From Flavobacteriaceae bacterium (GTDB lineage Bacteria; Bacteroidota; Bacteroidia; Flavobacteriales; Flavobacteriaceae), in contig OZ245049.1 in NCBI GenBank assembly GCA_965224465.1, positions 3,090,001 to 3,122,000 of the forward strand: a stretch of DNA of 32,000 bases, written 5' to 3'. The position numbers and the translations under genes were made by a program. This document shows positions 3,370 to 17,633 of this stretch, piece by piece; positions within the stretch are counted from its first letter, which is position 1; each line of letters opens with the position of its first letter. Below the pieces are notes generated by a model. That model was not told the DNA's origin. It saw only the letters and a list, made by a program, of their open reading frames with translations, and did not search any database.

Positions 3370-4917
3370 TTGATAATTTTTCATAAGAATAATAGCAAAA
3401 GTAAAAAACCCTACACAGCACCCATAAAAGAAGAAGATAAAACAAAAACGAGTAGCACCAAAAGACCTTCTATGTTGCCAGAAGGTACAGTGGTAGAAGA
3501 AATACCACAAAAAGATGTTGTACCTTTAGACAATAAAACAACAGCAGCTAAACCAGATGCTAAACCAACGGAAGATAGTATACAAACGACAAGTACAACC
3601 GCTGCTCCAGCACCGGAAACTAAAGTAGAAGAAAAAGAAGTGCCACGAAAACGTATGTTTCCAAGTACAGATATAGTACATCACTTTCATCCAATTGCTT
3701 GGGTGGAGCAGATGAAACTTATTTTTGGGGAGGGTGGCGGAGATTGTGAATCTCTTATTTGGGGAAATAAAGTAAGTTGTGAATTTAGAGAAAAAGTAAT
3801 TAAAATAGCAATCAATTTATGGGGAGAAGATAAGAAAATTGAAATGGCTAATAATTTAATGGCGGTATTTGCTTGGGAAAGTGGAGGTACTTTTAAATCA
3901 GATGCTCCAAACATGGGGAACTCTGGAGGAACAGGTTTAATTCAATTTATGCCTGAAACTGCAAAAGGTTTATTAAATAAAGAGATTACTATTGAGACTG
4001 TCAAGAATTATTGGGGTAAAGGAAAAAATTTAAAACGAGTAAAAGAATTTGCACAAATGACAGATATAGAACAGTTGTCATATGTTGAGAAGTACTTTAA
4101 AAGGTTAAAAGGGAAAGAATTAAAGTTTGTCGATTTTTATTTACAAGTACTATTCCCTGCATCTATGGGTAAATCTGATGACCATGTTGTATTCTCCAAA
4201 GATGGTAGTGGACTATCAAAAACAGATAGACATTATAATTTACGTATAAAAGCATATTCTCAAAATAAAGGGTTTGACACAAATGAAAAATATGGAAATA
4301 ATGATGGACAAGTAACCAAAGGGGAAATAAAGAAAAGTATTCAAAAATATCTTAATGATGGAAAAAAATATAAAAATAACTGTAATGATGGAAGTTGTAC
4401 ATTGGGAAGTGAGAAAAATAATAATATCATTGAAAATGGAGTAATTCTTAATTTTATAGGAAAATCATCAAAAGAATCATCTTTGTCTATTAAAACAAAA
4501 AATATTTTAAAGGAGGTTGGTAAAATTTCTGGAAATGAGAATATAATTATTACTAGTACGGCTAGAACTCCTTATGATCAAGCTAGAATAATGTATAACA
4601 ATTGTAAAGCTGGTCTACAAGAACAAAGAAATACTTATAAATCACCAGGGCAAAAAGTTATTGACGTATATGTTGAGGAGACCAAAAATAAAAAAACTAG
4701 AACTGAAATAATTTCTGCAATGGAAAAAAAGATAAAATCTTTAGGTGCTTCTTCTGTTTCTAGCCATTGTGCAGACCAAAGTATAATAAATACATTTGAT
4801 ATCTCTTATGCTAATTTAAAGGACAAAACAAAATTTTGGAATGAAATGAAAAAAAGAGTTGAACTAGATAAAATTTTAAACGAAAATAAATGTTACCATA
4901 TTCAAATAAAACAATGA
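3370..4917 (+). CDS. Orphan toxin module 3: effector linker plus junction motif plus SLT/GH23 lytic transglycosylase plus a second peptidase-like domain
   Basis: The track start at 3370 is TTG; the first ATG is at 3472. Residues 11-115 are nearly identical to residues ~735-839 of the 1202-aa effector. SLT signature: AVFAWESGG...GGTGLIQFMPETAKGL. The C-terminal part (IIITSTARTPYDQARIMY ... SSHCAD...FDIS ... CYHIQI) is reminiscent of LAS/M15 zinc peptidases, with low certainty. Confidence 0.7.
   Translation: MIIFHKNNSKSKKPYTAPIKEEDKTKTSSTKRPSMLPEGTVVEEIPQKDVVPLDNKTTAAKPDAKPTEDSIQTTSTTAAPAPETKVEEKEVPRKRMFPSTDIVHHFHPIAWVEQMKLIFGEGGGDCESLIWGNKVSCEFREKVIKIAINLWGEDKKIEMANNLMAVFAWESGGTFKSDAPNMGNSGGTGLIQFMPETAKGLLNKEITIETVKNYWGKGKNLKRVKEFAQMTDIEQLSYVEKYFKRLKGKELKFVDFYLQVLFPASMGKSDDHVVFSKDGSGLSKTDRHYNLRIKAYSQNKGFDTNEKYGNNDGQVTKGEIKKSIQKYLNDGKKYKNNCNDGSCTLGSEKNNNIIENGVILNFIGKSSKESSLSIKTKNILKEVGKISGNENIIITSTARTPYDQARIMYNNCKAGLQEQRNTYKSPGQKVIDVYVEETKNKKTRTEIISAMEKKIKSLGASSVSSHCADQSIINTFDISYANLKDKTKFWNEMKKRVELDKILNENKCYHIQIKQ
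3399..3715 (+). repeat. 317-bp homology tract shared with 11575-11891
   Basis: Constant offset of 8176 nt, no indels, about 9 substitutions by eye (~97%). It covers the P/T/K linker through the Met of VEQM, and similarity collapses immediately downstream. Confidence 0.9.
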
Positions 4918-5714
4918 AAAACAAATATTTAATAATATTTTTTTTGATTACATTAATAATTTCTTGTAAAGAAATAGAGAACCCAAAAATAACAACAAAT
5001 ATAAATAAGATAAAAGATACAATTAGAATCAACTGTAAAGAATGTATTATTGATCTTAAGTTTAATAATAAAAAGTTAAATAAATTAAAAGAAAAATATT
5101 CTAATGATGATTTTTATATTATAGCTGATGATGCAAACAATTATACATCTAATGTAAGAGACTTCTTAGGTCAAGAGAAAAAAGAAATTATTAAAATAAA
5201 AATGAATTCTAATAATGTTTTAAAAATTAATAATAGATTTATTATTCCCTATGAAAAAATTAATTATTGGGATTATATTTTATGTTTAAATAGTACAAAA
5301 CCAAAAATTGTCAGCCCAATTGAATTTATAGATGTTTATCAGACGTACTATATTGACAAAATCAAATCAATTAAACCTAATTGGATAGGGAGTTTTAATT
5401 TTTTTAATGACTTAGGCAAAATTGGAGATTCTGGAATTTTTATTGGATATAATATTAATATTTCAAAAGATAGTATTTTGTTTTCTGGGCAAGGTTATCA
5501 AACTAATTTTTATGATTTGTGTTACGCCAAGCAAAATAAAGATACCTTAGAATTATATTACAAAAAAACAATTGAAGGAACAGATTATAATAAAAAAGAG
5601 AAAAAAGCATTATTTAAACTATATATTAAAAACAGCAATTATTATGGTAAAAGTCCTGTAATATTTATTGAATCTATTAATAACACTCCTTTTCAATTAG
5701 AAAAAAATGATTAA
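4914..5714 (+). CDS. Lipoprotein, putative immunity protein of orphan toxin 3
   Basis: ATG at 4914 gives MKNKYLIIFFLITLIISCKE (lipobox ISC). There is an ATGA start/stop overlap with the toxin ORF. Confidence 0.6.
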   Translation: MKNKYLIIFFLITLIISCKEIENPKITTNINKIKDTIRINCKECIIDLKFNNKKLNKLKEKYSNDDFYIIADDANNYTSNVRDFLGQEKKEIIKIKMNSNNVLKINNRFIIPYEKINYWDYILCLNSTKPKIVSPIEFIDVYQTYYIDKIKSIKPNWIGSFNFFNDLGKIGDSGIFIGYNINISKDSILFSGQGYQTNFYDLCYAKQNKDTLELYYKKTIEGTDYNKKEKKALFKLYIKNSNYYGKSPVIFIESINNTPFQLEKND

Positions 5715-5717
5715 TTA

Positions 5718-7291
5718 ACTCAAGTTTCGCACTTAGATAGATTTACGCAACCTCTTGATAGTTAAGCTTGTGGATATTCACTAGGAATCCAAAATCTTCA
5801 ATATTCGCTATTATTTTACGTGTAACCATTTCAACATCAATAGATTCAATCATCTTTTCCAAAATGTCAATCACCAAGCTGATAACTGCTAATATCCTGA
5901 TGTTTAGCTTATTCTCTATATAATCTTGTTTTAAATCTTTAAACAAGCCTCCTATAGTTTCGTAGGCTTCCATTCTATATCGAATACTGGTGAGTAAATA
6001 TTGAACCATTATAATGCTTATTTGTGCGATTTGAATATCGAAATTAGTAGACTGACATTTTCCAAGACCAAACAACTGCTTAGCTTCTTTAAAAAACACT
6101 TCTATGGACCATCTGATACTGTATATTTCAATAGCCTTTACAAATTTCAGTGTTGTATCCGTTGATATTAACGTGTGCCATTTGCCATTCTTTCCACGTT
6201 TTGAAATAAATACAGCAACCTTAAGACCATCAATTTCAGTTATGTAATGATGGTAGTAATAATTGAATTTACGGCATCGTTTTGGTTTTATTTTCTGTTT
6301 TTTGAGTTGTGACAACGTTTTTATCTTTGATCGAACTTCAATCTTACTGTTGTATTTATACATCCCAATAATATGAGTTGAACTACTAATGTTCCGTAGC
6401 TTTCTAAGTAATTTAACACTTGTAAACCAGGTGTCTATTAAGATGTAATCTATGGGGATTTTACGTTTTACAAGCCTTGAGAACATTTGAACTAGCAGGT
6501 CTGTTTTCTTTTTATTGAGTTCCTGATACCTCTTTGCTGCAATTGTTTTACTACATCTTGGAGTTTTCTTTTGAAGCCTACGTTGCTTCGCCGTTAGACC
6601 GTATTTTAATTTTGATGTTTTACTTTCACGATGCAAACTAAAGTCAACAGGGATAAATACACTTCCATTCCAATAACCAGCTACAAGTAGCTTAAAGCCT
6701 AGGTAATACGTTTTTGACACATGGTTGTATATTTTTGAAACACCTTCAATTGTCTTTCCTGTTTTAGAAAGATCAGTATCGTCAAAGATCAAGCACTTTG
6801 TAGCGTCTTGAGATGGAGTAAAGAACTCTTCTTTTAATAGATATTGCTTCACAAACTGAGCTAGAAAAACCCTCCAATTTATCTTTTGATTTGCTAGGAT
6901 TCGATAGTATGAATCTTTACCCGACTGACCTAATCCCTTGTCTTTACTACTTGTAAGTCCATGAATAGAATCAAATCCGATAATAGGTAAAATTAAAAGT
7001 GTAGAGATTAAATTACCGAATGAAATCCCCGATTTCTTACACCAACTAAACTTGTTTTTAATTTTATTGAATCCTAAAATATTTAGATGTGCTTGTAGGT
7101 ATTCTGAACTAAGCCAAATCTTATTAAATTTTCCTTTTATCTCCTGTGTTTTTGTGATATCTTCGTGTTCTAGCATGTTTTGTACTTTCTTGTTCGTACT
7201 TAAAAGTACAATAAAACCAGGGGATTACCTTGGTTTTCATGCTATTTATTTTTACTTAAACACCTGTAAATGATGGGTGCGAAACTTGAGT
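5718..7291 (-). mobile_element. Complete IS4-family insertion sequence (1574 bp)
   Basis: Perfect 15-bp terminal inverted repeats: ACTCAAGTTTCGCAC at 5718-5732 and its reverse complement GTGCGAAACTTGAGT at 7277-7291. They enclose a single DDE transposase ORF. No flanking direct repeat is seen. Confidence 0.85.
5743..7176 (-). CDS. IS4-family DDE transposase (477 aa)
   Basis: Long ORF with the IS4-type C-terminal Y-x2-R-x3-E-x6-K block (YSIRWSIEVFFKEAKQ). It is bracketed by the IRs. Confidence 0.9.
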   Translation of the reverse strand: MLEHEDITKTQEIKGKFNKIWLSSEYLQAHLNILGFNKIKNKFSWCKKSGISFGNLISTLLILPIIGFDSIHGLTSSKDKGLGQSGKDSYYRILANQKINWRVFLAQFVKQYLLKEEFFTPSQDATKCLIFDDTDLSKTGKTIEGVSKIYNHVSKTYYLGFKLLVAGYWNGSVFIPVDFSLHRESKTSKLKYGLTAKQRRLQKKTPRCSKTIAAKRYQELNKKKTDLLVQMFSRLVKRKIPIDYILIDTWFTSVKLLRKLRNISSSTHIIGMYKYNSKIEVRSKIKTLSQLKKQKIKPKRCRKFNYYYHHYITEIDGLKVAVFISKRGKNGKWHTLISTDTTLKFVKAIEIYSIRWSIEVFFKEAKQLFGLGKCQSTNFDIQIAQISIIMVQYLLTSIRYRMEAYETIGGLFKDLKQDYIENKLNIRILAVISLVIDILEKMIESIDVEMVTRKIIANIEDFGFLVNIHKLNYQEVA

Positions 7292-7555
7292 AAACTTATA
7301 TCATTGAAGGATTCTCTTGAAGATATACTTTCAAGCCATTCACTTAATATTGATGATGAAATTATTTCAACTATTAGTTCATTGTGCATTGAAATTAGAT
7401 TGATGATTAACGAGTTTCGATTTAATTCTACTCATGAAGAATTAACTGGAGAAAAAGAAGGGATTTCTGGAGCTAATCGGCTAGATAAAATTTATGATAT
7501 GATTATGGATTTACTAAGATTACTTGAGCATGAAAATGGTATTAAAAGAGAATAA
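7277..7555 (+). CDS. Hypothetical 92-codon ORF, possibly the 3' remnant of a gene cut by the IS4 insertion
   Basis: The GTG 'start' lies inside the IS4 inverted repeat and the first in-frame ATG is well downstream. An identical copy is at 17355-17633. No domain recognised. Confidence 0.3.
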   Translation: MRNLSKLISLKDSLEDILSSHSLNIDDEIISTISSLCIEIRLMINEFRFNSTHEELTGEKEGISGANRLDKIYDMIMDLLRLLEHENGIKRE

Positions 7556-7703
7556 AGCAAAGCTGCTAACAATAAATATAGGTCATTTGGCAGGTAATGC
7601 AAATTTTGAAAATGAGTACAATTAATATAATATATAGCGTTTGGATAGGTTGGAGCTTTGAAATGCCAAACGCCCCATATTCAAGCCGTTGGCAAACATT
7701 AAA

Positions 7704-8324
7704 ATGAAGACTGTACTATACATATTAATTACTCTAATTTCGACTGTCTCGTATGGCCAAATCAGTGGAAAAGATAGCGACAGAGCGCATCTGCTAATTG
7801 ATAATTTTCGAAACCATATTGATTCGACTAACCAGTTGACTAATGGAGCTAAGATTTTCTATATCAGCGACTCCTTATTTAAAGGAACGATATTGACTTT
7901 GAAAAATGGCGACAAACTTGAACTTGACTTGAGATACAAAGACAATTTTCGTGGCTATACAGAATTAGGTGTTGACTTTGAGAATTATGTACTTATAAAG
8001 AATCGTGGAGACGGGTCAGGAAACCCTGAACGACTCCGGGTAATCAACAAAAAAACAGGTGAAGACAAGTGGCTTGGAAACTATCCATTCTATCTTGACA
8101 AGGAAAATGAAATCGGTGTTTACAAATCATATACAGATTCGTTCTCACAAATTATAGTTCATGACTTCTCGACCAACAAAACAGAAATTTATCCGACTCC
8201 TGCCACTAAATGTATCTGCTGTGGTTGTTATGAAATTGTCCAATTCGACAATGATGGTTTCACAATAAAATTTGTTGACCCCGATGACAATGAGACAGAA
8301 CTGAAAATGAAAAGAAAAAAATAA
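7704..8324 (+). CDS. Secreted hypothetical protein (206 aa) with a C-terminal CICCGC cysteine cluster
   Basis: ATG at 7704 gives MKTVLYILITLISTVSYGQ (signal peptide). An identical copy is at 19639-20259, upstream of the second PAAR gene. Confidence 0.6.
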   Translation: MKTVLYILITLISTVSYGQISGKDSDRAHLLIDNFRNHIDSTNQLTNGAKIFYISDSLFKGTILTLKNGDKLELDLRYKDNFRGYTELGVDFENYVLIKNRGDGSGNPERLRVINKKTGEDKWLGNYPFYLDKENEIGVYKSYTDSFSQIIVHDFSTNKTEIYPTPATKCICCGCYEIVQFDNDGFTIKFVDPDDNETELKMKRKK

Positions 8325-8486
8325 CGAAATGCCAATAACTAAGTGTTCGTGCGATACCTAGCGCCCAGCATGAACATCCTGTTGACTGTATCGTTTCAAA
8401 AGATGATACTATGAGGTTGGCGCAATTAATTAAGAGGCTATCAACAAAGACCTTAATAAGATACTACCTGTTTTAGTGCATTTACT

Positions 8487-8516
8487 CCCACGCTCTTTTG
8501 TGGGGATAGTTTTTTA
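8487..8516 (+). terminator. Weak candidate intrinsic terminator
   Basis: CCCAC (8487-8491) / GTGGG (8500-8504) stem followed by GATAGTTTTTT. The stem is only 5 bp and lies ~165 nt after the upstream stop. Confidence 0.3.
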
Positions 8517-8726
8517 CTGTTTTTTGATACTGATTATTGTTGGTTAGTAGCGTTTAGGCATGCGCTTTCTATTACGTGGCTACGTTTATTTTTTAACAAC
8601 GCTAGAACGTAAAACAACCTATTTATATCGGTTATAAGATAAAGGTCAAATCGGTACGGTAATTAGATGAATAAAAATACAGGGAAATATAATCGGAAAA
8701 CCACTACTGCATATAACTATTTTTTG

Positions 8727-8734
8727 TACATTTG
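8727..8734 (+). promoter_or_regulatory. Candidate Bacteroidota -7 promoter element (TAnnTTTG) upstream of the PAAR gene
   Basis: TACATTTG at 8727-8734. The paralogous position 20662-20669 reads TACTTTTG, so the consensus is kept although neighbouring bases differ. No clear -33 TTTG partner. Confidence 0.25.
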
Positions 8735-8900
8735 AAGACTGCTTATACATATATACGTCTGAATAATTAAAATAACCCAATGCTACATCGTAGGTTAAAT
8801 GGATATGCCATCTTGTTTAGCACTGCTACTGTGAGAATATGGGATTATAAGTAATTTAACGCACTCAAGCGGTAGAACATTACATAAAAAACAAAAAATT

Positions 8901-9362
8901 ATGCCAGGACCAGCAGCAACAATATCACACATGCACACATGCCCTATGTATAGTGGAACAAGCCCACATACTGGTGGCCCCATTATAGGCCCGGGAGTGC
9001 CAACAGTTTTAATAGGAGGAAAACCTGCCGCAGTAATGGGGGATCAATGTACCTGTTCGGGACCACCCGATGTAATTGTAGAAGGTGTTTCTACCGTATT
9101 AATTGGCGGGAGACCTGCAGCTACTATGGGATCAAAAACAGGTCATGGAGGCGAAGTAAGCATTGGAAATCCTACCGTACTTATTGGTACAAGATGTAGT
9201 GCTCCTACCGCAATAATGCCAGTGCATAAAATACCTTTTCCTAAAATCACTCTAATTAATAGAATATTAGGGAATACAAGGCAAGCGCAAGAAAACCAAG
9301 AAAAAATAAAAGAAGAAGCTAAGAAACATGGATATCTTAGTGATTTTAATTTAAGTATCTAA
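8901..9362 (+). CDS. PAAR-domain protein with a ~55-aa C-terminal tail
   Basis: Gly/Pro-rich beta-repeat with literal PAA motifs (GGKPAAVMGD, GGRPAATMGS), conserved H/C residues (HMHTCPM, CTCSG) and repeated TVLIGG strands. GC is markedly higher than in the flanks. Confidence 0.9.
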   Translation: MPGPAATISHMHTCPMYSGTSPHTGGPIIGPGVPTVLIGGKPAAVMGDQCTCSGPPDVIVEGVSTVLIGGRPAATMGSKTGHGGEVSIGNPTVLIGTRCSAPTAIMPVHKIPFPKITLINRILGNTRQAQENQEKIKEEAKKHGYLSDFNLSI

Positions 9363-9373
9363 AATAAAAATCT

Positions 9374-12300
9374 ATGAGAGTAAGTTATCCGCTAAAAGAT
9401 ATTAGTACTGATGCCGAAGCAAAAAATTATTTGGGGAATCGTAACCTTTTTGGAAAATACCCTATTGGAGCGCATAATGCTTGGCATGGTGGTATACATT
9501 TAGAAGGTGCAAGTAGAGAAATACAATGCATTGCGCAAGGTCGTATAATTGCCTACCGCTTTGCAGAAGGGTATAAAAAAACGATAATAAACAATTCGGA
9601 TCACTTATACTCTAATGGGTTTATACTCATACAACACGATTATAAAAGTAAAGAAAAACAAAAAATGACCTTTTATAGTTTGTATCATCATTTAATGCCT
9701 AAAGATGAGATAACTACTAATAAGTTTAGTTTACCTGATTTTGTAAGTAAAAAAAAACATGTAGTAACTAGAGGTTTAGGAATTCTTAATCTAGGTTTAA
9801 GAGGGAGGAAGCTTAAAGATAATGTAATAAACTGGAAAGATAAAGATACTATAGTTGTTGTAATACCTAAAGGAGAGCTTGTACAAGCTATGCTAGACGA
9901 AAATAGCAAGGAAATAAGAAAAGGAAACTGGTTAAAAGTAAGCTATACAGATAAAAACAATAAAAAATATGAAAATATTTACTTAAGTACAAAATATGGT
10001 ACAAAATATAAAGTAAAGCAAATAGGTACTACCACTACTTACGAAATAATCACTACCGAAGATCCAGATAATAGTATATTAGGTGCAATAGTAAGAACAG
10101 AAGCAATTAATAGTTCTGAAATTGTAAAAGTCATTGAGAACGGTTTCCCTATAAAAATAGATGACTCTTATAAAAACAAAGGTTGGATAAAATTAGCAGA
10201 CAATACTGGCTATATTTTAGAAAGCAGTTTAGATAAAAAAAAAGTACTTGCTAAAAACGTTAAGTTAAATACAATTACAGCTTGTGATATACCAATAAAA
10301 GCAGGTGTAACCATTGGTTATACAGGTAGCCTAGGTTTTAAAGGGTACAAAGGATATAAAGCAACCCACTTAGAAGTATTTACAACAGATGATGTTTTTG
10401 AGTTTTTAAGTAATGAAAAAAAAGATGGAAAAGAAGAACAATATTTTACAAATATTATAGCAGGCACAACATTAAAAACAAGCCTATTTTACAAAGTAGA
10501 TATTAAAGCAAATACCCCTATAAAAGTACTTAAAATTGAAGGAGATTATGCACAAATAAAAGTAACATCTATTACTGCAACCTTAGTTAGAGATACCGAT
10601 ATTAATGATAACGTAAAACCATTTAATAGCAATAAACTTTATACTATCAAAAATCTTACTACGGTTAATAAAGCATTTAATGGTCTTGCAACTAAAGATG
10701 CCACATTCAATACAAAACAAGTAAAAGCACCAAGAAATTGGAGAACAAATTTAAACAGAACTGTTACCTTTTACCCAAATGGCTATGGTAAAGTGTTTTG
10801 GATAGAAAAAACATTTATTTCCAAAATAACAGAAAAAACCAAAAAAAAAGCAGGTATATTTGTCTCAATTACTCCTGACTATTTTTTAACAGAAGAACAA
10901 AAATACGATACAGTTGAAAGAGAAGCCAAAACAGGAGAAAAAACTACATTATATGTAGATGTATGTAAGGCATATATCGAAGTCCCTTTTAGAACCGATG
11001 TAGAAGAAGTAACTGTAGAAAAAGAAAAAGTAGTTGACTTACGTAAATTTAAAAAAGCAAAAGACGATAAAAAAGACCTTTGGTATAAAGTAGTATTAGA
11101 TGATACAACTAGTAGCCAATGTGTCGCAGTAAAAGGCTGGGTAAAAGAAAAGGATCTTGACAAATTTAGCGCTTACGATTGGCAAAAATTTGGTTTTAAA
11201 GATCTAGACGCAGGTAATGAATACATATACTCTGTAAAAGACTTATGTAAGGCAGAAGACAGTGCCGCTTTTGTAACCGAAATTTGGGATAAAACAATAG
11301 ATACAGATGGCAATAAAGTATTAGATATACTAGAGCTTATTAGAGCGTTTAGTAAACCAGAAATAGCACAAAAACTATCTCGTTTGGTATGTAAGCACAA
11401 AAATGAATGGTCTTATACTATGGACGAAATAAAACCAGAAGTAAAAGAACTCTATGATTTTGGTATACAATTAGAAGAAGTTACAGCCGAAAAACAAAAA
11501 CTAGAAACCGAAAGGGATGATAGTTTAGCCAAAATGGAAACCAAAATAGAAAATTTAATGTGGTGGGATGAGGCAAGTAAAAAAACCTACACAGCACCCA
11601 TAAAAGAAGAAGATAAAACAAAAACGAGTAGCACCAAAAGACCTTCTATGTTGCCAGAAGGTACAGTGGTAGAAGAAATACCACAAAAAGATGTTGTACC
11701 TTTAGACAATAAAACAACAGCAGTTAAACCAGATGCTAAACCAACGAAAGATAGTATACCAACGACAAGTACAACCGCTGCTCCAGCACCAGAAACTAAA
11801 GTAGAAGAAAAAGAAGTGCCACCAAAACGTATGTTTCCAAGTACCAATATAGTACATCACTTTCATCCAATTGCTTGGGTGGAGCAGATGAGGAGGGTTT
11901 TTGGAGATAATGGTATTTGTGTTTGTGAAGCTAGAGTTAGGGCTTTTCTGAGACTTATTAAAGAATTTGAAGGAGTTCCAGGCGAAAAAGGATATACTAC
12001 ATTGTTTAATCATAAAAGTTTTTCAGATATGTCTACACATCCAGAAAAACCTATTCTTTGGTATAAAAACAAAAAAACAGGAAAAAATGTGTATAGTACT
12101 GCTGCAGGTGCATATCAAATAATGAAAGAAACTTGGTGGGATTATAATGGAGATGTAGTAAAAGACCATAAAAAAGTAGGTAGAAACGAGAATAGAAACT
12201 TCGTTAAAAAATATGGAATAAAGGATTTTTCAGCTAAATCTCAAGATAAATTTTGTATAGCATTACTAATACATGGATATAAAGCAAAAAATCAATTGAA

Positions 12301-12982
12301 TTATTTATTAAATGGTTTTGTAACCAGAGCGATAGAAGAATGTGCATCACACACTTGGGCTAGTTTTACTCCTGGTAGATATCCAAAACAAGGGCCAACA
12401 AAGGGACTTACAAATAAGAAAAAAATAAAAGACGCTATACATAACGCTAGAGTAAAGCAATGGGAAGCCTATGATAAATTTCTTACTGAAGAGCTAGCTG
12501 GACAATCTGATTTACATTTAGAACCTGGATTTTTAAAAAAGTTTGGAATTAAAGAGCCTGAACCAAAGGAGCTAATAGAAAACAAAAAAGAAGGGCTTGA
12601 TTTAAATAAAGCAATTGAAAGATTAAATAAAAGAGCTGGTGACATGACTACTTCAGTATGGAAATGTGCTAAATATGTTAGATGGGCTTTAGAAGCTGGG
12701 GGAATGAAAACATGGGGTGCTGCTAAAATAGATCAACGCCCAAATTCGGCAAAAGATTATGGCCCGTTTTTATTAAACAAAGGTTTTAAAGAAGTTCCTA
12801 AGGGTAATTATCAAAAAGGAGATATATCAGTTATTCAAAATTTAAGTGCGGCAAAACCTCATGGGCACATAGCTATGTGGAATGGTGAAAATTGGGTATC
12901 AGATTTTGTTCAAAAAACTCTTTACCCAGGAGATGGGTATAGAAATGCACAACCAAATTATAAAATTTACAGATGGGAATAA
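9374..12982 (+). CDS. Large polymorphic effector: split M23/LytM-like N-domain, SH3-like inserts, P/T/K linker, HHFHPIAWVEQM junction, GH104 (lambda R-like) muramidase, Tae4/NlpC-P60-like amidase
   Basis: Starts 11 nt after the PAAR stop. M23-like blocks: WHGGIHLEG, GRIIAYRF, GFILIQH, FYSLYHHL, then ~190 aa later IKAGVTIGYTGSLG...ATHLEVF. The C-terminal region is colinear with phage lambda R: RVRAFLRLIKEFEG / FSDMSTHPEK / STAAGAYQIM..TWWDY / KDFSAKSQD / HTWASF. The last ~135 aa carry KCAKYVRWAL (Cys) ... KGDISVI ... HGHIAMWNGENWVSDF (His), as in Tae4-type amidases. Confidence 0.85.
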   Translation: MRVSYPLKDISTDAEAKNYLGNRNLFGKYPIGAHNAWHGGIHLEGASREIQCIAQGRIIAYRFAEGYKKTIINNSDHLYSNGFILIQHDYKSKEKQKMTFYSLYHHLMPKDEITTNKFSLPDFVSKKKHVVTRGLGILNLGLRGRKLKDNVINWKDKDTIVVVIPKGELVQAMLDENSKEIRKGNWLKVSYTDKNNKKYENIYLSTKYGTKYKVKQIGTTTTYEIITTEDPDNSILGAIVRTEAINSSEIVKVIENGFPIKIDDSYKNKGWIKLADNTGYILESSLDKKKVLAKNVKLNTITACDIPIKAGVTIGYTGSLGFKGYKGYKATHLEVFTTDDVFEFLSNEKKDGKEEQYFTNIIAGTTLKTSLFYKVDIKANTPIKVLKIEGDYAQIKVTSITATLVRDTDINDNVKPFNSNKLYTIKNLTTVNKAFNGLATKDATFNTKQVKAPRNWRTNLNRTVTFYPNGYGKVFWIEKTFISKITEKTKKKAGIFVSITPDYFLTEEQKYDTVEREAKTGEKTTLYVDVCKAYIEVPFRTDVEEVTVEKEKVVDLRKFKKAKDDKKDLWYKVVLDDTTSSQCVAVKGWVKEKDLDKFSAYDWQKFGFKDLDAGNEYIYSVKDLCKAEDSAAFVTEIWDKTIDTDGNKVLDILELIRAFSKPEIAQKLSRLVCKHKNEWSYTMDEIKPEVKELYDFGIQLEEVTAEKQKLETERDDSLAKMETKIENLMWWDEASKKTYTAPIKEEDKTKTSSTKRPSMLPEGTVVEEIPQKDVVPLDNKTTAVKPDAKPTKDSIPTTSTTAAPAPETKVEEKEVPPKRMFPSTNIVHHFHPIAWVEQMRRVFGDNGICVCEARVRAFLRLIKEFEGVPGEKGYTTLFNHKSFSDMSTHPEKPILWYKNKKTGKNVYSTAAGAYQIMKETWWDYNGDVVKDHKKVGRNENRNFVKKYGIKDFSAKSQDKFCIALLIHGYKAKNQLNYLLNGFVTRAIEECASHTWASFTPGRYPKQGPTKGLTNKKKIKDAIHNARVKQWEAYDKFLTEELAGQSDLHLEPGFLKKFGIKEPEPKELIENKKEGLDLNKAIERLNKRAGDMTTSVWKCAKYVRWALEAGGMKTWGAAKIDQRPNSAKDYGPFLLNKGFKEVPKGNYQKGDISVIQNLSAAKPHGHIAMWNGENWVSDFVQKTLYPGDGYRNAQPNYKIYRWE
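11575..11891 (+). repeat. 317-bp homology tract shared with 3399-3715
   Basis: See the partner feature at 3399-3715. Confidence 0.9.
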
Positions 12983-13842
12983 ATAAAATATTTAAACTTT
13001 TAGTTGTATTTGCTTTTTTTAGTTCTTTCTTATCATGCAAAGAAAGTCCTAAAAAAAACAATGATGTTGTAGTAAATAATACATCGTCATCACTTAATGT
13101 AGGAAAAAAGAATAATCCCCAAACAAAAATAGAGTCTAAAGATTTTATTCTTGAATTTTACACAAAATATATTAAATATTTAGAAGATCCTTTAAATGAA
13201 GAATCAATAGATTATGAATTTTATTTAACGGAAGATTTGATTGATGAAATTGGAAAAACAGAAGGTTATGATTACATTATAAAAGCCCAAGATTCAACTG
13301 TAGAATGGTTGAAATCTTTAAAAGTAGAGGATACTGAGAAAAATAACGTTTACAGTATTACTCGTGAAAAAGGTTATTATGATAGTGATGATAATACAAT
13401 TTATGCCACTGTTATAGAACTAAAAAATGAAAAATTAAAAATATCAAAGTTAAGTAGTACTTTAATAGATCAACCTATTTCTACTCCAGTAGAAAACGAA
13501 GATCAGAAAGGTAAGTTTACTTATTACTCTTTTGATTATAAAATAAATCCTGGAGATCGCATTAATGAGACAAGTTATATTATAGAATATTTAGAAGAAG
13601 AACATATTGTTTTTTCAATGATGGGATATGATGGAGAGTTTGACTATAAATGTAGACAGGTAAGGACAAAAGAAGGTGTTTCACTTTATTATATAGAAGC
13701 TACTGATGATGATGAATATACAGGAAATAAAAGTAAACCACTCGCTAGAATATATAAAAAAGGTGAAGATTTTTATGCTAAAAGTTCACTTATAGAAGAT
13801 GGTAAAGAAATTAAGCTAAAAGAAGTTGAAAGTAGATACTAA
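12973..13842 (+). CDS. Lipoprotein, putative immunity protein for the full-length effector
   Basis: MGINKIFKLLVVFAFFSSFLSCKES (lipobox LSC). It overlaps the effector stop by 10 nt, and its position is analogous to the three orphan-linked lipoproteins. Confidence 0.65.
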   Translation: MGINKIFKLLVVFAFFSSFLSCKESPKKNNDVVVNNTSSSLNVGKKNNPQTKIESKDFILEFYTKYIKYLEDPLNEESIDYEFYLTEDLIDEIGKTEGYDYIIKAQDSTVEWLKSLKVEDTEKNNVYSITREKGYYDSDDNTIYATVIELKNEKLKISKLSSTLIDQPISTPVENEDQKGKFTYYSFDYKINPGDRINETSYIIEYLEEEHIVFSMMGYDGEFDYKCRQVRTKEGVSLYYIEATDDDEYTGNKSKPLARIYKKGEDFYAKSSLIEDGKEIKLKEVESRY

Positions 13843-13963: not shown

Positions 13964-14272
13964 ATGAGAAAAAACGAAGAAAAACGAGCCTATATGACAG
14001 CTGTTGTTTCCGATTGGAAGTTGAGTGATTTAACCTTGGAAGATTATTGTAAAAGTCATAAAATTACACTTTGTAAATTTAGGTACTGGAATAAGAAATT
14101 GACCTCCAAAAAAGCCAGTGGATTTTCAAAGGTTGAACTTATTGATGCTCCTATTGAAAACAGCAGAAATTCTATTTTAGATAGTTTTAAAATCGAGTAT
14201 CCAACAGGTGTAAATTTGGTCATTAACAAAGAGATTACACTTGTCGATTTACAAAATTTAATTCATTTGTAA
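13964..14272 (+). CDS. tnpA: IS66 accessory protein TnpA (Orf1)
   Basis: Small first ORF of the IS66 triplet, 102 aa, directly upstream of the tnpB-like ORF. Confidence 0.75.
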   Translation: MRKNEEKRAYMTAVVSDWKLSDLTLEDYCKSHKITLCKFRYWNKKLTSKKASGFSKVELIDAPIENSRNSILDSFKIEYPTGVNLVINKEITLVDLQNLIHL

Positions 14273-14273
14273 T

Positions 14274-14615
14274 ATGCTAAATCTTTCAAGTGAACTTGAT
14301 TTTCATCTGTACCTAGAACCCACAGATATGCGTAAAGGATTTAATGGTTTGTCAGGTGTTATCCGTAATAATTTAGAAGAGGATCCTAGTAATGGAGCTG
14401 TTTTTATCTTCATAAATAAACCTCGAAACAAAATAAAACTATTGCATTGGCAAGCAGGTGGATTTGTACTGTATTATAAACGATTGGAACGAGGTACTTT
14501 TGAACTCCCGGTGTATGATAATCTGAAAGGAAGTATACAAATGAAATACAGCCAAATGGTGATGCTTCTTGATGGACTGTCTATCAAAAACATCCAACAA
14601 AGGAAACGTTATTAA
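14274..14615 (+). CDS. tnpB: IS66 Orf2 protein TnpB
   Basis: DMRKGFNGLSGVI...GAVFIFINKPRNKIKLLHWQAGGFVLYYKRLERGTFELP matches the conserved IS66 Orf2 pattern. Confidence 0.9.
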   Translation: MLNLSSELDFHLYLEPTDMRKGFNGLSGVIRNNLEEDPSNGAVFIFINKPRNKIKLLHWQAGGFVLYYKRLERGTFELPVYDNLKGSIQMKYSQMVMLLDGLSIKNIQQRKRY

Positions 14616-14683
14616 TGTCTTTTTACAGGTAAAAAACCTAATAAAACCAGGCTGTTCATGTATATTTTTCGTATATTTAATGT

Positions 14684-16327
14684 ATGGAAAAAGACTTAGA
14701 ACAGCTATCAAAAAAAGCACTTATAGCCCTATTACAGGAGGCTAATTCTAAGTCAGATTTACTTATCAAAAAGACAAGTTCTCTTAGTGCAAAAAATGAG
14801 TTACTTACTATAAAGACAAAAGACGTTACTTTACAAAAGGCTATCCTAGAAGCTCAATATAAAGAATTAGAGACAAAATACGGATATGGACAATTTCAAT
14901 TAGAGCAATTACGTCGTATGATTTTTGGGACAAAACGTGAGCGTTTTATAATGGCTAATAACCCTTTTCAAATGCAACTCCCTTTCGAAGTTTTAAAAGA
15001 GATGCCCCAGGAAGAAGAAGCTCCTGTAAACATTACATATCAACGTAAAAAGACTAAAAAAAGAACGATTGGAAGTTTAAATCTCCCCAGTCATTTACCT
15101 GTTGAAATTATTAATTTAGAGCCTAAAGAGACTATAGAGAACCGAATAAAAATAGGTGAAGAAATTACAGATAAATTAGAACTTGTACCCACAAAGCTAT
15201 ACATAAAACGATATGTCAGACCAAAATACGCCTTAAAAAAGAAAGTACAAGACACATTGATTGACAATGGAAACCCTTTAGGTATTAAGACCGTTATTAT
15301 GGCTGATTTACCAAGTTTTGCTATTGAAAAATCTGTAGCATCAAACAGCCTGCTAGCACAGCTATTGATTGATAAATTCTTAGATCACTTACCGTATTAT
15401 CGACAGATAGAACGTTTTAAACGAGAAGGAATCTCTATAAGTTCATCTACAATAAATGGATGGCAAAACAGCTTAGGACACTTACTTAAGCCGCTGTATC
15501 AGGCTATGAAAAACACGGTGCTGTCACAAGGATATGTACAGGCCGATGAATCAACTATTCCGGTGCTAGACAAACAGAAAAAAGGAAAAACTCATACTGG
15601 ATATCATTGGGTGTACTATTCACCCATACAAAAAATGGTATTGTTTGATTATCGTCACTCTAGATCTAAACATGGACCTAGAGAAATGCTTAAAAACTTT
15701 AAAGGGTATTTACAAACAGATGGCTACGCTGTATATGATGAATTTGCACTTAAAAAAGATGTCACTTTAGTAGGGTGTATGGCACATGCACGTCGTTATT
15801 TTGAGAAAGCACTAGACTATGACAAAGTAAAAGCGAGTCATGCGATGGTACTCATTCAACAATTATATGCCATTGAACGACATTGTAAAAACCAGGAATT
15901 TACTCCTGAGCAACGGCATGCTTATCGCCTAGATAAAGCACAACCAATAATGGATACATTTATAAAATGGTTGATCCATAATACCCAAGGAAGCTTACCT
16001 AAAAGTTCCTTAGGAAAAGCAATCACTTATACATTAAAACGATGGGACTACTTAAAAGCCTACCTGTATGACGGTACTTTAGAACTAGATAATAACCTGG
16101 TAGAAGGATCTATCAGAACATTAGCTATTGGACGTAAAAATTATTTATTTGCAGGTAGCCATGATGCTGCAAAAAATGCTGCCATGTTCTACTCCTTTTT
16201 TGGGACTTGTAAAAAACACCAAGTAAACCCCTATAAATGGATGAAAAAAGTACTGGATATAATCCCTGATTACAATGCTCGAAAGCTAAATGAGCTATTT
16301 CCACAAAATTTAAACCTCGATCAATAA
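14684..16327 (+). CDS. tnpC: IS66-family transposase TnpC
   Basis: 547 aa with an N-terminal coiled coil, DHLPYYRQIERFKREGI, and a DDE-type core (HWVYYSP..., LQTDGYAVYD, GCMAHARRYF). Confidence 0.9.
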   Translation: MEKDLEQLSKKALIALLQEANSKSDLLIKKTSSLSAKNELLTIKTKDVTLQKAILEAQYKELETKYGYGQFQLEQLRRMIFGTKRERFIMANNPFQMQLPFEVLKEMPQEEEAPVNITYQRKKTKKRTIGSLNLPSHLPVEIINLEPKETIENRIKIGEEITDKLELVPTKLYIKRYVRPKYALKKKVQDTLIDNGNPLGIKTVIMADLPSFAIEKSVASNSLLAQLLIDKFLDHLPYYRQIERFKREGISISSSTINGWQNSLGHLLKPLYQAMKNTVLSQGYVQADESTIPVLDKQKKGKTHTGYHWVYYSPIQKMVLFDYRHSRSKHGPREMLKNFKGYLQTDGYAVYDEFALKKDVTLVGCMAHARRYFEKALDYDKVKASHAMVLIQQLYAIERHCKNQEFTPEQRHAYRLDKAQPIMDTFIKWLIHNTQGSLPKSSLGKAITYTLKRWDYLKAYLYDGTLELDNNLVEGSIRTLAIGRKNYLFAGSHDAAKNAAMFYSFFGTCKKHQVNPYKWMKKVLDIIPDYNARKLNELFPQNLNLDQ

Positions 16328-16345: not shown

Positions 16346-16383
16346 TATTTTTAATTCCTATACGTACTTCGTCGGACGGATAC

Positions 16384-17254
16384 GTTGTGACAACGTTTTT
16401 ATCTTTGATCGAACTTCAATCTTACTGTTGTATTTATACATCCCAATAATATGAGTTGAACTACTAATGTTCCGTAGCTTTCTAAGTAATTTAACACTTG
16501 TAAACCAGGTGTCTATTAAGATGTAATCTATGGGGATTTTACGTTTTACAAGCCTTGAGAACATTTGAACTAGCAGGTCTGTTTTCTTTTTATTGAGTTC
16601 CTGATACCTCTTTGCTGCAATTGTTTTACTACATCTTGGAGTTTTCTTTTGAAGCCTACGTTGCTTCGCCGTTAGACCGTATTTTAATTTTGATGTTTTA
16701 CTTTCACGATGCAAACTAAAGTCAACAGGGATAAATACACTTCCATTCCAATAACCAGCTACAAGTAGCTTAAAGCCTAGGTAATACGTTTTTGACACAT
16801 GGTTGTATATTTTTGAAACACCTTCAATTGTCTTTCCTGTTTTAGAAAGATCAGTATCGTCAAAGATCAAGCACTTTGTAGCGTCTTGAGATGGAGTAAA
16901 GAACTCTTCTTTTAATAGATATTGCTTCACAAACTGAGCTAGAAAAACCCTCCAATTTATCTTTTGATTTGCTAGGATTCGATAGTATGAATCTTTACCC
17001 GACTGACCTAATCCCTTGTCTTTACTACTTGTAAGTCCATGAATAGAATCAAATCCGATAATAGGTAAAATTAAAAGTGTAGAGATTAAATTACCGAATG
17101 AAATCCCCGATTTCTTACACCAACTAAACTTGTTTTTAATTTTATTGAATCCTAAAATATTTAGATGTGCTTGTAGGTATTCTGAACTAAGCCAAATCTT
17201 ATTAAATTTTCCTTTTATCTCCTGTGTTTTTGTGATATCTTCGTGTTCTAGCAT
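16384..17254 (-). pseudogene. IS4-family transposase lacking its C-terminal ~190 codons
   Basis: The translation is identical to the first ~290 aa of the 477-aa copy. The track ORF then reads through into IS66 terminal sequence (..LSQRIRPTKYV). Confidence 0.85.
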
Positions 17255-17369
17255 GTTTTGTACTTTCTTGTTCGTACTTAAAAGTACAATAAAACCAGGG
17301 GATTACCTTGGTTTTCATGCTATTTATTTTTACTTAAACACCTGTAAATGATGGGTGCGAAACTTGAGT
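16384..17369 (-). mobile_element. Truncated second IS4-family copy (transposase-start-proximal 986 bp only)
   Basis: Identical by eye to 6306-7291 (offset 10078). It starts abruptly at the IS66 right end and retains the IR at 17355-17369. Confidence 0.85.
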
Positions 17370-17633
17370 AAACTTATATCATTGAAGGATTCTCTTGAAG
17401 ATATACTTTCAAGCCATTCACTTAATATTGATGATGAAATTATTTCAACTATTAGTTCATTGTGCATTGAAATTAGATTGATGATTAACGAGTTTCGATT
17501 TAATTCTACTCATGAAGAATTAACTGGAGAAAAAGAAGGGATTTCTGGAGCTAATCGGCTAGATAAAATTTATGATATGATTATGGATTTACTAAGATTA
17601 CTTGAGCATGAAAATGGTATTAAAAGAGAATAA
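17355..17633 (+). CDS. Duplicate of the hypothetical 92-codon ORF
   Basis: The translation is identical to 7277-7555. Confidence 0.3.
   Translation: MRNLSKLISLKDSLEDILSSHSLNIDDEIISTISSLCIEIRLMINEFRFNSTHEELTGEKEGISGANRLDKIYDMIMDLLRLLEHENGIKRE

Follow-up and report, generated by a model that had tools for sequence, protein, structure and literature searches.

A conserved junction block between carrier and exchangeable tips in a TseP-related family of putative type VI secretion system effectors

In this study, we found that a short conserved peptide block marks the exact end of a conserved carrier and the start of interchangeable tips in a family of polymorphic effectors, and this boundary is well supported. 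Our verdict is that the block is an undescribed junction element of a polymorphic type VI secretion system (T6SS) effector family related to TseP. The block was examined in a 32-kb stretch of DNA (hereafter, the window) and in homologues of the protein that carries it.

Translation of the window placed HFHPIAFVEQM at 473-505 and 2086-2118 and HFHPIAWVEQM at 3682-3714 and 11858-11890, in all cases in frame on the + strand, as had been reported in an earlier note on this DNA. A degenerate DNA pattern for the block peptide had four matches in the window against 0.00 expected (100 shuffles). The open reading frames holding the four copies lie at 467-1090, 1978-2691, 3370-4917, and 9374-12982, and in the last of them, which encodes a 1202-aa effector, the core motif occupies aa 829-839. 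The earlier note took the conserved block to be 11 residues long. However, residue frequencies showed that the conserved stretch covers about 26 residues, P-x-R-x-F-P-x4-V-[YWH]-H-F-H-P-[IV]-A-[FW]-[VI]-E-[QH]-M-[KR]-x-[IM], and in the effector the extended block is PPKRMFPSTNIVHHFHPIAWVEQMRRV (11819-11899, + strand; aa 816-842), with a strand at 826-830 and a helix at 832-843 in the AlphaFold2 model. Conservation ends at position +3/+4 past the motif, and both faces of the strand are conserved. In addition, no Pfam, NCBIfam, or PDB entry covered the block in profile and database searches, and a literature search with the peptide string gave no match. A 2012 survey of polymorphic toxins contains no matching pre-toxin motif and no mention of M23. 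Thus, the first impression that this is not a named pre-toxin motif still stands.

To estimate how widely the block occurs, its profile was used in an exhaustive search of representatives, and 168 protein clusters were recovered. This search replaced a word-indexed search with a 42-aa motif profile, in which 58 candidates were scored and one 70-aa fragment was obtained. The profile scan proposed in the earlier note therefore did not end at the four frames of the window, and boundary behaviour was seen elsewhere: judged by the carrier profile, every long block-bearing protein has the same N-terminal region of about 750 aa followed by diverse tips, and the short block-bearing proteins are orphan tip cassettes. 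The block is kept in 25 of 27 full-length homologues. Cassettes with stubs of 30-130 aa were found at loci L002, L003, L004, L010, L013, L015, L023, and L026, and three more are present in the window. Among 60 full-length members, N-terminal homology was detected in all pairs (1770/1770) and tip similarity in 229 pairs. For instance, there were 12 pairs with carriers at least 55% identical and unrelated tips, and 21 pairs with carriers less than 35% identical and tips at least 45% identical. In the extreme case, P0006 and P0007 are 99.4% identical over 802 aa, and their tips have no BLAST match to each other. A shared carrier with many tips, orphan cassettes with a homology stub, and a demarcation motif at the junction are features of polymorphic toxins, and these three were found here.

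The boundary is also sharp at the DNA level. When the resident gene was compared with the cassettes at seven loci (the window and six others) from four orders, DNA identity was 80-100% up to and through the block, fell to about 25-50% immediately after it, and reached background within 30 nt. The homology tracts extend from 60 to more than 280 nt upstream. These sequence patterns suggest that tips are swapped by homologous recombination. The shared carrier, the 24 or more tip clusters, and the collapse of identity at the seven loci bear out the proposal of the earlier note that the motif is the constant/variable boundary of a polymorphic effector. We also considered a split system, in which a body-only gene would be followed by a motif-first tip gene. 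It was rejected, because the tipless member P0012 is followed by housekeeping genes and no tip.

In the window, the full-length effector (9374-12982, + strand) consists of a constant part (aa 1-828), the junction block, and a variable tip (aa 840-1202). A gene for a PAAR protein (8901-9362, +; PF05488, E 4.7e-21) with a C-terminal extension of about 55 aa lies immediately 5′ of it, and a gene for a putative cognate immunity lipoprotein (12973-13842, +), with a signal peptide ending ...FLSC, lies downstream. Upstream of PAAR, a 211-aa lipoprotein is encoded. Orphan module 3 (3370-4917, +) has a 104-aa stub of the effector loop, the motif, and an SLT-like tip with a second domain, and an immunity-like lipoprotein gene (DUF5991; 4890-5714, +) overlaps its end. 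Its tract 3399-3715 (+) is 97.5% identical over 317 nt to 11575-11891 in the effector gene; the match takes in about 94 codons upstream and the motif itself, ends 1 nt past the motif, and has eight differences, six of them non-synonymous and none in the motif. The earlier estimate that module 3 and the effector share about 95 residues upstream of the block was therefore accurate. Orphan module 2 (1978-2691, +) has a 36-aa stub of another carrier lineage, the motif, and a C39-like peptidase tip, with an immunity-like lipoprotein at 2660-3358 (+) whose signal peptide ends ...ILGSC. Orphan module 1 (440-1090, +) is decayed: the motif is followed by a CHAP amidase tip, there is an in-frame stop 11 codons 5′ of the motif with frameshifted remnants further upstream, and an immunity-like lipoprotein (MKKTNYYILLGLIFLLICC...) is encoded at 1101-1769 (+). 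The tracts 443-510 and 2056-2123 match over 68 nt with 86.8% identity, up to a point 5 nt past the motif. Modules 1 and 2 were said to share only about five upstream residues (SNVY); the sharing is indeed short, but it comprises R-x-F-x3-SNVY.

The window also holds a second PAAR gene (20837-21298, +) within a 98.2%-identical duplicate (19504-21318). Next comes the 5′ part (21310-22008, +; 232 aa) of another effector gene, divergent from the first and belonging to the NVYHFHPIAF lineage, which an IS30-family element (21997-23001, minus strand) has truncated. The module 2 stub belongs to the same lineage, so the suggestion of two recipient effector lineages holds. The window is rich in mobile elements, and no T6SS core genes were found in its 32 kb.

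The tips differ in family, and the recognisable ones are alike in target. The effector tip (11891-12979, +) combines a lambda-lysozyme-like domain (aa 871-1003; profile match to 1am7, E 2.4e-5) with a Tae4-like amidase (aa 1079-1201; 4hz9, E 1.5e-23). The four tips of the window are a CHAP domain, a C39-like papain-fold peptidase, an SLT-type lytic transglycosylase with a second domain, and the lambda-lysozyme-like plus Tae4 pair. They had been described as unrelated enzyme folds. They do represent four distinct families, whereas at the level of folds they fall into two broad superfamilies (papain-like and lysozyme-like), all peptidoglycan-directed. Across the family, clustering by sequence separated the tips into at least 24 groups, several of which have no annotation, and all recognisable tips are peptidoglycan enzymes. 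The largest cluster is GH19-like and related to TseP-C. In viral contigs, no match was found, and matches to PHROG profiles were confined to the tips; a phage origin was therefore rejected.

A lipoprotein-like frame overlaps or abuts each of the four tips of the window. In Aquimarina aquimarini, a 75%-identical homologue of the effector-tip immunity candidate stands after an 81%-identical tip fragment. In Labilibaculum, a tip 69% identical to that of module 3 is followed by a 46%-identical homologue of the module 3 immunity-like lipoprotein. Thus, in two cases, a tip and its downstream gene occur together in distant taxa, which suggests that tip and putative immunity gene travel together.

A PAAR gene is directly upstream of the effector in 12 of the 12 loci where that region is visible, and the gene order is VgrG-PAAR-effector in Aquimarina (L025). 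Furthermore, on a Capnocytophaga plasmid (L029) the genes ahead of the homologue are gp25-like, VgrG-like, and PAAR, and tssK, tssB, tssC, and vgrG precede the homologue in Paraburkholderia (L028). The adjacency to PAAR or vgrG genes that characterises T6SS spike cargo is thus present, and it points to delivery of the effector by a T6SS.

Positions 9476-9703 (+) of the effector gene encode the N-terminal half of a divergent LytM/M23-like domain (WHGGIH..., FYSLYHHL), a segment that is shared with vgrG-linked, TseP-like proteins of Proteobacteria. The M23-like residues H38, H42 (WHGGIH), H88, and H106 are nearly invariant in the family alignment, and Pfam M23 matches in homologues are weak. The body of the junction domain (aa 595-745; 11156-11608, +) is mostly helical. 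It contains an EF-hand loop, DTDGNKVLDILE (aa 643-654), with Pfam EF-hand matches in P0086, P0024, and P0033, and an invariant strand, LVCKHKNEW (aa 671-679). A Pro/Thr/Lys-rich loop (aa 746-813; 11609-11812, +; pLDDT about 30, predicted disordered) connects this body with the motif, and the spacing from W731 to H829 varies from 14 to 117 aa across the family.

Structure prediction around the motif, which the earlier note had recommended, gave an ordered block even when the tip was absent. In an AlphaFold2 model of aa 1-860, residues 821-840 have pLDDT 94/91, with a strand at 826-830 and a helix at 832-843. In a model of aa 595-860, without residues 1-594, the block has pLDDT 88/91 and keeps its strand, and the only other strands are 609-612 and 671-676. 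The pLDDT values and DSSP strings suggest that the β-strand and helix of the block pack back against the last constant domain, which bears the EF-hand, with the junction body as the predicted docking partner; AlphaFold2 can be over-confident on short conserved segments. Foldseek searches with the 860-aa model and the junction model gave nothing significant in PDB or BFVD, and sequence profiles matched PDB entries for tip domains only. In addition, there is a member, P0012, that has neither tip nor block and retains its PAAR pairing. Thus, the carrier can exist without the block.

The relation of the carrier to a characterised T6SS effector had been missed in the earlier note. The family profile aligns collinearly with the vgrG-linked homologues from Proteobacteria (E 1e-34 to 1e-45), which carry KH.SEW and then a degenerate block directly before the tip (VFHIHPIGLV, VFHFNPIGMV, VWHYWPF, or VWHFWPF). 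In the Vibrio homologue L030, the tip is 56% identical to TseP-C. The closest characterised relative is therefore TseP of Aeromonas dhakensis, which was described as a 'chimeric' amidase-lysozyme T6SS effector (Wang et al., eLife 2025, PMC11893102). Taken with that description, the collinear homologues suggest that the carrier is homologous to the N-terminal module of TseP-type effectors. A search with 216 TseP-C residues rebuilt from the 8XCL alignment returned only short GH19 proteins with at most 57% identity.

Based on these results, we propose that, in a polymorphic T6SS effector loaded via PAAR, the block is probably the structural element with which the constant part ends. The constant part of about 750 aa would comprise the divergent LytM/M23-like domain, interrupted by SH3-like β-domains, as well as further β-domains and the helical EF-hand junction domain. 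Past a loop whose length varies (14-117 aa) and which is predicted to be disordered in the window effector, the chain would return to the junction domain, where the block strand IVHHF may join its small sheet and lead into PIAWVEQMRRV, an amphipathic helix capped by Pro, and the peptidoglycan-hydrolase tip would begin 3-4 residues further on. The block may be held constant at the protein level because it completes the carrier fold, and for the same reason its coding sequence, together with the lineage-specific loop upstream, would be the last homology between resident gene and cassettes. The cassettes would be promoterless tip-plus-immunity units; homologous recombination in the loop-block stretch would swap the tips, and viable products would always break just past the block.

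Some other readings of the block should be weighed against this proposal. In the earlier note, the two His residues were called invariant and, with the Pro, were suspected to be a processing or metal site. The fuller form of this idea has H829 and H831 of the block acting with H675, E678, and often C673 of the neighbouring strand to coordinate a metal or make up an autoproteolytic centre, perhaps gated by Ca2+ at the adjacent EF-hand, that would release or activate the tip after delivery. The two His are spaced i, i+2 on the predicted β-strand, and they are near-invariant within Bacteroidota (147/157 and 149/157) beside the invariant H675/E678, more than a purely structural strand requires. 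H675 occurs in 69 of 70 full-length sequences, E678 in 68, W679 in all 70, and the EF-hand residues D643 and E654 in 60 and 68. In P0013 and P0014, the change of C673 to V co-occurs with the change of HFHP to HFN[VM]. Furthermore, the E539A mutation of TseP lowers the Zn-dependent amidase activity of its N module (PMC11893102), and E539 may match the junction-domain Glu. However, the first His is replaced by Y, S, or C and the second by N or Y inside the Bacteroidota set, and among more distant homologues (Burkholderia, Vibrio, Photobacterium, and Capnocytophaga) N, W, or E stands in place of the second and Y can stand in place of the first. Neither His is universal, which leaves a metal or cleavage role unsupported. 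C673 is absent from 13 of the 70 sequences, and 10 of these keep HFHP. In addition, full-length, C-terminally tagged TseP is secreted, and processing is not mentioned in that report (PMC11893102). The tips act in the periplasm, where the T6SS itself delivers, so release is not required. Taken together, we consider a metal or processing site unlikely. The same low probability applies to the junction as an active switch, in which the HFHP strand, H675, E678, and the EF-hand form a composite metal site, either as part of the carrier amidase centre or for Ca2+-triggered release or activation of the tip in the Ca2+-rich periplasm of the target. If this were true, a conserved mechanism of activation would be tied to the exchange of tips through the boundary motif. 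We did not adopt a Cys-His3 zinc staple linking strands 671-676 and 826-830, because only 3 of the 13 sequences without C673 change a motif His, 4 of the 57 Cys-bearing sequences do so as well, and distant homologues replace the His. Similarly, we set aside the block Met as an internal start for tip-only products, because its replacements (L, I, F, and V) fit a buried helix position and a free tip would be without its carrier.

The strict pairing of PAAR and effector, the conserved PAAR extension of about 55 aa, and the conservation of both strand faces would also fit a block that, by itself or through the surface it makes with the junction domain, binds the PAAR extension, VgrG, or an adaptor, is conserved on that account, and so lets any tip bearing it be exported. 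The N module of TseP, which by position is expected to include the block, suffices for T6SS assembly and binds VgrG2 (PMC11893102). On the other hand, VgrG2 binding and secretion have also been reported for TseP-C (PMC11893102), the start of which lies past the place where the block is expected, models without any partner already fold the block with confidence onto the carrier itself, and P0012 keeps its PAAR pairing without the block. A loading role is thus distinctly improbable in our opinion. A DNA-level signal, such as a recombinase target whose translation is incidental, might be suspected from the clustering of breakpoints within a few nt of the 3′ end of the block and from the many mobile elements of the window. 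However, 35 instances of the identical block peptide are encoded by 24 distinct DNA versions, with all four Pro codons used. Selection on the block acts on the peptide and not on the DNA, and the free variation of synonymous sites already contradicts this idea. Furthermore, no recombinase is conserved beside the loci, the IS elements are specific to this window, and the upstream tracts of 60 to more than 280 nt fit homologous recombination, which leaves a DNA signal with very little probability. Even less credible is a block that forms the N-terminal strand or helix of the tips, as part of a common catalytic or immunity-binding fold. The block is always contiguous with the tip and is kept in the orphan cassettes, but the tips represent several folds and no fewer than 24 sequence clusters, matches to catalytic-domain profiles begin at least 13 residues past the block, and the block is ordered in models without a tip. 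This possibility, which the earlier note had raised for one shared catalytic domain, is already contradicted.

These results have some practical consequences. Few T6SS effectors have been defined in Bacteroidota, and the block recovers 168 clusters with at least 24 tip families. The block, alone or together with KH.SEW, is thus a simple and highly specific handle for T6SS effectors, tips, and immunity genes in this phylum. In addition, the junction indicates a position for grafting peptidoglycan hydrolases from other sources onto a T6SS carrier. The range of cargo is unusual: every identified tip attacks the cell wall, and the carrier itself resembles a cell-wall enzyme.

TseP and the putative T6SS effectors of the present family are both spike-linked. 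Both have an N-terminal HxxxH pair (H19/H23 in TseP and H38/H42 in the window effector), which in the present family lies in a putative M23-like module, and a predicted EF-hand ahead of a C-terminal peptidoglycan hydrolase, and the experimental N/C split of TseP at 603/604 is the expected site of the junction block. However, the partner gene of the present family encodes PAAR, rather than VgrG alone as for TseP. The C-terminal module is a GH19-like lysozyme in TseP (TseP-C, PDB 8XCL), whereas it is lambda-lysozyme-like plus Tae4-like in the window effector; GH19-like tips occur in other members, so the type of tip is variable in the family and does not define it. In the TseP paper, the protein is presented as the product of a single fusion, with no mention of a junction motif, linker, polymorphism, or orphan cassettes (PMC11893102), whereas at least 24 tip families and common cassettes are found here. 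Our results would place TseP, currently described as a one-off fusion, in an old and widely distributed carrier family with C-terminal exchange at a fixed junction.

Other polymorphic toxin systems share parts of this design. In Rhs/YD-repeat toxins, a short block (PxxxxDPxGL) likewise ends the constant shell before a variable toxin, and orphan tips located downstream retain it as a stub of homology, like the present cassettes. However, the Rhs motif is part of an aspartyl autoprotease, whereas the present block gives no sign of cleavage, and the two sequences are unrelated. The PT-VENN motif of CdiA (and (Q/E)LYN) also lies at a constant/variable junction, and orphan cdiA-CT/cdiI modules retain it. 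CdiA, however, belongs to type V two-partner secretion and has filamentous haemagglutinin repeats, which are absent from the present effector. Most CdiA tips are nucleases or pore formers and have to cross the inner membrane, in contrast to the tips identified here, all of which are directed at peptidoglycan. Searches of Pfam and NCBIfam found no match to YD repeats or Rhs, TPS, FHA, or PT-VENN domains in the effector or the modules. The resemblance of the block to the Rhs and CdiA demarcations is functional only. Within the T6SS, the MIX, FIX, RIX, PIX, and WHIX markers also define effectors with diverse toxic domains and, like the present block, help in finding new effectors. MIX, FIX, RIX, and PIX are N-terminal and WHIX is central, and they are delivery domains of Proteobacteria; unlike these markers, the present block occurs mainly in Bacteroidota and probably caps a large enzymatic carrier at its C-terminal end. 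Thus, the system is well supported as a new example of a known design, with a carrier from marine Bacteroidota, and not as a new kind of system.

The peptide HFHPIAFVEQM is encoded in frame on the plus strand at 473-505 and 2086-2118, and HFHPIAWVEQM at 3682-3714 and 11858-11890. The degenerate DNA pattern of the peptide had four matches in the window and none in 100 dinucleotide-preserving shuffles. Thus, all four copies of the earlier note are present. The ORF scan of the window placed them in four plus-strand ORFs (467-1090, 1978-2691, 3370-4917, and 9374-12982). The last ORF encodes the 1202-aa effector. It begins 11 nt downstream of a PAAR gene (8901-9362; PF05488, E = 4.7e-21), and its 3′ end is overlapped by a lipoprotein-like ORF with a signal peptide (12973-13842). 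The effector tip, the C-terminal 363 residues, includes a lambda-lysozyme-like domain (aa 871-1003; 1am7, E = 2.4e-5) and a Tae4-type amidase domain (aa 1079-1201; 4hz9, E = 1.5e-23). The other three ORFs belong to short modules upstream of an IS4-family transposase gene, each built from a stub and the motif, then a peptidoglycan-hydrolase tip and a lipoprotein-like gene. The tip of module 1 is a CHAP domain, and that of module 3 pairs an SLT-type lytic transglycosylase with another domain. The tip of module 2 (2119-2691) had no match in the Pfam search and is a C39-like papain-fold peptidase, matching recently solved structures named 'Peptidase C39-like domain-containing protein' (9jdd and 9jg8, E = 4e-16); its family (17 members in the tip clustering) is found behind carriers of several lineages. 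In the tips, all catalytic-domain profile matches start at least 13 residues past the motif.

Self-comparison of the window showed 97.5% identity over 317 nt between 3399-3715 and 11575-11891, ending 1 nt past the motif, and 86.8% identity over 68 nt between 443-510 and 2056-2123, ending 5 nt past the motif, so the upstream relationships among the copies are as first described. Six of the eight differences between the 317-nt tract and the effector are non-synonymous, and none is in the motif. One cassette, module 3, belongs with the resident effector and shares the 317-nt tract with it. Meanwhile, the stub preceding module 2 and a second, truncated effector (21310-22008) are both similar to the NVYHFHPIAF lineage, and the family protein P0076 ranks high among the relatives of each. 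These pairings support the two recipient lineages proposed previously.

A search with the full effector found 27 relatives, chiefly in Flavobacteriaceae (e.g., Aquimarina, Tamlana, and Olleya), with similarity over about 71% of the query, namely the portion up to the motif. The block or a close variant is present in 25 of them, followed by 145-468 residues. Conservation spans a block of about 26 residues, P-x-R-x-F-P-x4-V-[YWH]-H-F-H-P-[IV]-A-[FW]-[VI]-E-[QH]-M-[KR]-x-[IM], and conservation stops at +3/+4 past the motif. The profile scan proposed in the earlier note, scored against 1.84 billion representative proteins, gave 168 clusters at E ≤ 1e-3 and bore out a constant/variable boundary. 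All hits with at least 450 residues upstream of the block match one carrier profile, and hits with 7-150 residues upstream are cassette-like. Downstream, the tips (first 170 residues past the block) formed 24 BLAST clusters. The recognizable ones, all peptidoglycan-directed, are CHAP, M23, phage lysozyme, GH108 with PG_binding_3, pesticin-type lysozyme, DUF5675, PG_binding_1, and GH19. Among 60 full-length members, the carrier is common to 1770 of 1770 pairs, and any tip similarity is found in only 229. For instance, the tips of P0006 and P0007, two proteins with 99.4% identity over 802 residues, have no BLAST match to each other. Furthermore, carriers below 35% identity go with tips of at least 45% identity in 21 pairs. 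One family member, P0012 (6001-8172 of locus L027), has a PAAR partner but lacks the junction block, a tip, and an immunity gene. Its C-terminus lies in helices past KHQSEW, with housekeeping genes next, and it is either a decayed copy or a self-acting carrier.

An exact scan of one genome per species found the coding pattern in 23 loci of Flavobacteriales, Marinilabiliales, Cytophagales, and Saprospiraceae, and an exact scan of viral contigs found none. The 36 motif-bearing ORFs in these loci are of two kinds: full-length genes, in which 650-840 residues precede the motif, and cassettes, frequently two or three in tandem, in which 30-130 residues do. In anchored within-locus comparisons, DNA identity is 80-100% through the motif and the 60-150 nt upstream, and drops to about 25-50% in the 30 nt past it (seen in L002, L003, L004, L013, L015, L023, and the window). 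In addition, tips and downstream genes move jointly. Labilibaculum has a copy of tip 3 (69% identical) followed by a 46%-identical copy of the module 3 lipoprotein, and Aquimarina aquimarini has a fragment of tip 4, the effector's own tip (81%), and, after it, a 75%-identical version of the 12973-13842 product. Cassette sizes differ widely: a 908-aa 5′-truncated carrier copy with 513 aa before the motif lies downstream of the A. aquimarini effector (L025, 16950-19676), and a Pseudotamlana cassette of 276 aa has just 65 aa before it (L026, 13785-14615).

The window is dense in IS elements (5743-7176, 13964-16327, and 16358-17254). The IS4-family transposase gene is intact; a truncated second copy matches it over 1264 nt at 100% identity (6306-7569 vs 16384-17647) and adjoins a three-ORF IS66-family unit (13964-16327). 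A 211-aa lipoprotein gene, an intergenic region, and the PAAR gene (7569-9382) are duplicated at 19504-21318 with 98.2% identity, which stops 9 nt inside the effector ORF; the two effector genes are then about 75% identical, in patches. Thus, the 5′ end of the gene looks like a second exchange boundary, at which whole carriers appear to be exchanged behind a constant PAAR. An IS30-family element (transposase 21997-23001, minus strand) truncates the second effector gene (from 21310) after 232 codons. Window 2-168 resembles the IS30 end at 22935-23100 (74%), and the truncated gene and the cassette array (440-5714) may have been parted by an IS30-mediated rearrangement. The second duplicate copy also has a minus-strand group II intron (17911-19389) between a 92-aa ORF and the lipoprotein gene, with a reverse transcriptase ORF (17911-19008) and Rfam group-II D1-D4 matches (19123-19197 and 19215-19389; 126 bits). 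The region between the lipoprotein and PAAR genes contains a 53-nt element (8579-8629 and 20514-20564) with an inverted copy (27142-27194, 88.7%) near a rhodanese-like gene. The 211-aa lipoprotein-like ORFs upstream of each PAAR gene (7689-8324 and 19624-20259) carry a CICCGC cluster and had no Pfam/NCBIfam match and no tblastn match in the other loci. Because TsiP neutralizes TseP-N, the N-terminal module of an Aeromonas type VI secretion system (T6SS) effector, this lipoprotein could be a candidate immunity protein for the constant amidase-like module.

The AlphaFold2 model of aa 1-860 (28-sequence alignment) had a mean pLDDT of 79.8. The loop at aa 746-813 is disordered (pLDDT about 30), and aa 821-840 reach 94 and 91, with a β-strand at 826-830 (IVHHF) and a helix at 832-843 (PIAWVEQMRRVF). 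In the aa 595-860 construct (70-sequence alignment), the block had pLDDT 88 and 91 with strand and helix unchanged, and the only other strands are 609-612 and 671-676. The models suggest the junction domain (aa 595-745) as the docking surface of the block, rather than the tip or the M23-like domain. The junction domain includes an EF-hand loop (DTDGNKVLDILE, aa 643-654; D643 in 60 and E654 in 68 of the 70 sequences) and the strand LVCKHKNEW (aa 671-679; H675 in 69, E678 in 68, and W679 in all 70). The spacing from W731 to the motif varies from 14 to 117 residues across the family, and thus the long Pro/Thr-rich segment of the effector is a loop insertion, not a tip tether. Foldseek searches of both models against PDB and BFVD gave no significant match. 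About 200 residues of SH3-like β-domains interrupt the carrier's M23-like domain (aa 35-110 and about 330-337; window 9476-9703 and about 10360-10390). Canonical M23 motifs are HxxxD and HLHFE, whereas the carrier has HxxxH (WHGGIH) and THLEVF in their place.

Wherever the region 5′ of the effector was available (12 loci), a homologous PAAR gene directly adjoins the effector on that side, and the order in A. aquimarini is VgrG-like, PAAR, effector. No T6SS core genes were found within the 32-kb window. Searching plasmid records with the carrier (tblastn) gave 95 records, mostly Proteobacteria, with about the first 110 residues in common. Five were examined in full, and all five are collinear with the carrier profile (E 1e-34 to 1e-89) and have a tip directly past the block. 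These, listed with tip or gene context, junction signature, and block, are Paraburkholderia sprentiae L028 (GH108 tip; QHESEW; block FPASNVFHIHPIGLVGNF; directly 3′ of tssK, tssB, tssC, and vgrG), Burkholderia stagnalis L031 (GH19 tip; KHESEW; VFHFNPIGMV), Vibrio sp. THAF191d L030 (tip 56% identical to TseP-C, the C-terminal module of TseP; KHPSDW; VWHYWPFSVY), Photobacterium sp. GJ3 L032 (KHPSEW; VWHFWPFAI), and a Capnocytophaga sp. plasmid L029 (CKHQSEW; VFWYFEPFAWVTQMM; 3′ of gp25-like, VgrG-like, and PAAR genes, in that order). The block occurs in collinear homologues across phyla, and therefore the junction element is old. Its cross-phylum core retains only aromatic-[H/Y]-aromatic-x-P-[IF]-small, and the HFHP form is confined to the Bacteroidota branch.

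Against PDB, the carrier profile weakly matched 8XCL, the C-terminal lysozyme of the Aeromonas dhakensis T6SS effector TseP (PMC11893102). It is through the five collinear intermediates that the carrier can be assigned to the TseP family. TseP-N (residues 1-603) is a Zn-dependent amidase that superimposes on an M23-type structure, needs H19, H23, H109, H339, H359, and E539 for activity, binds VgrG2, and alone restores T6SS assembly; TseP-C (residues 604-845) is an independent lysozyme, and an EF-hand is predicted in TseP (PMC11893102). 

On the best-supported reading, the block caps the last domain of the carrier at its C-terminal end. It would fix the position of the tip on the PAAR-loaded carrier, which is probably an enzyme in its own right, and its place in the carrier fold would explain its conservation. 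That conservation would in turn make its coding sequence, together with that of the preceding lineage-specific loop, the homology for cassette recombination, and viable recombinants would break just past the block. A DNA-level signal is contradicted by the 24 distinct DNA sequences among 35 copies of the identical peptide, with all four Pro codons used; therefore, it is the protein rather than the DNA that is constrained. Membership in the tip folds is likewise contradicted, since the tips form so many clusters and the block is ordered in a model lacking the tip; for the same reasons, it is not a strand of one common catalytic domain, the alternative raised in the earlier note.

That note also considered a metal or processing site. 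The His pair and the invariant H675 and E678 would fit such a site. However, both His are substituted in clear homologues, there is no consistent co-variation with C673, and secreted full-length C-terminally tagged TseP was detected with no processing reported (PMC11893102), so this suggestion is weakened. A loading signal is possible but not favored, since TseP-C by itself binds VgrG2 (PMC11893102) and the tipless, motif-less P0012 retains its PAAR partner.

In the libraries and literature searched, we found no description of the junction block, of its predicted fold-back onto the EF-hand junction domain, of a tip repertoire of such size, or of the Bacteroidota cassette arrays. The authors of the TseP study suggested that its halves were joined through a recombination event; unlike the Bacteroidota family here, no junction motif, linker, polymorphism, or orphan cassettes are mentioned for TseP (PMC11893102). 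Polymorphic toxins with demarcation motifs and TseP-type effectors are themselves already known.
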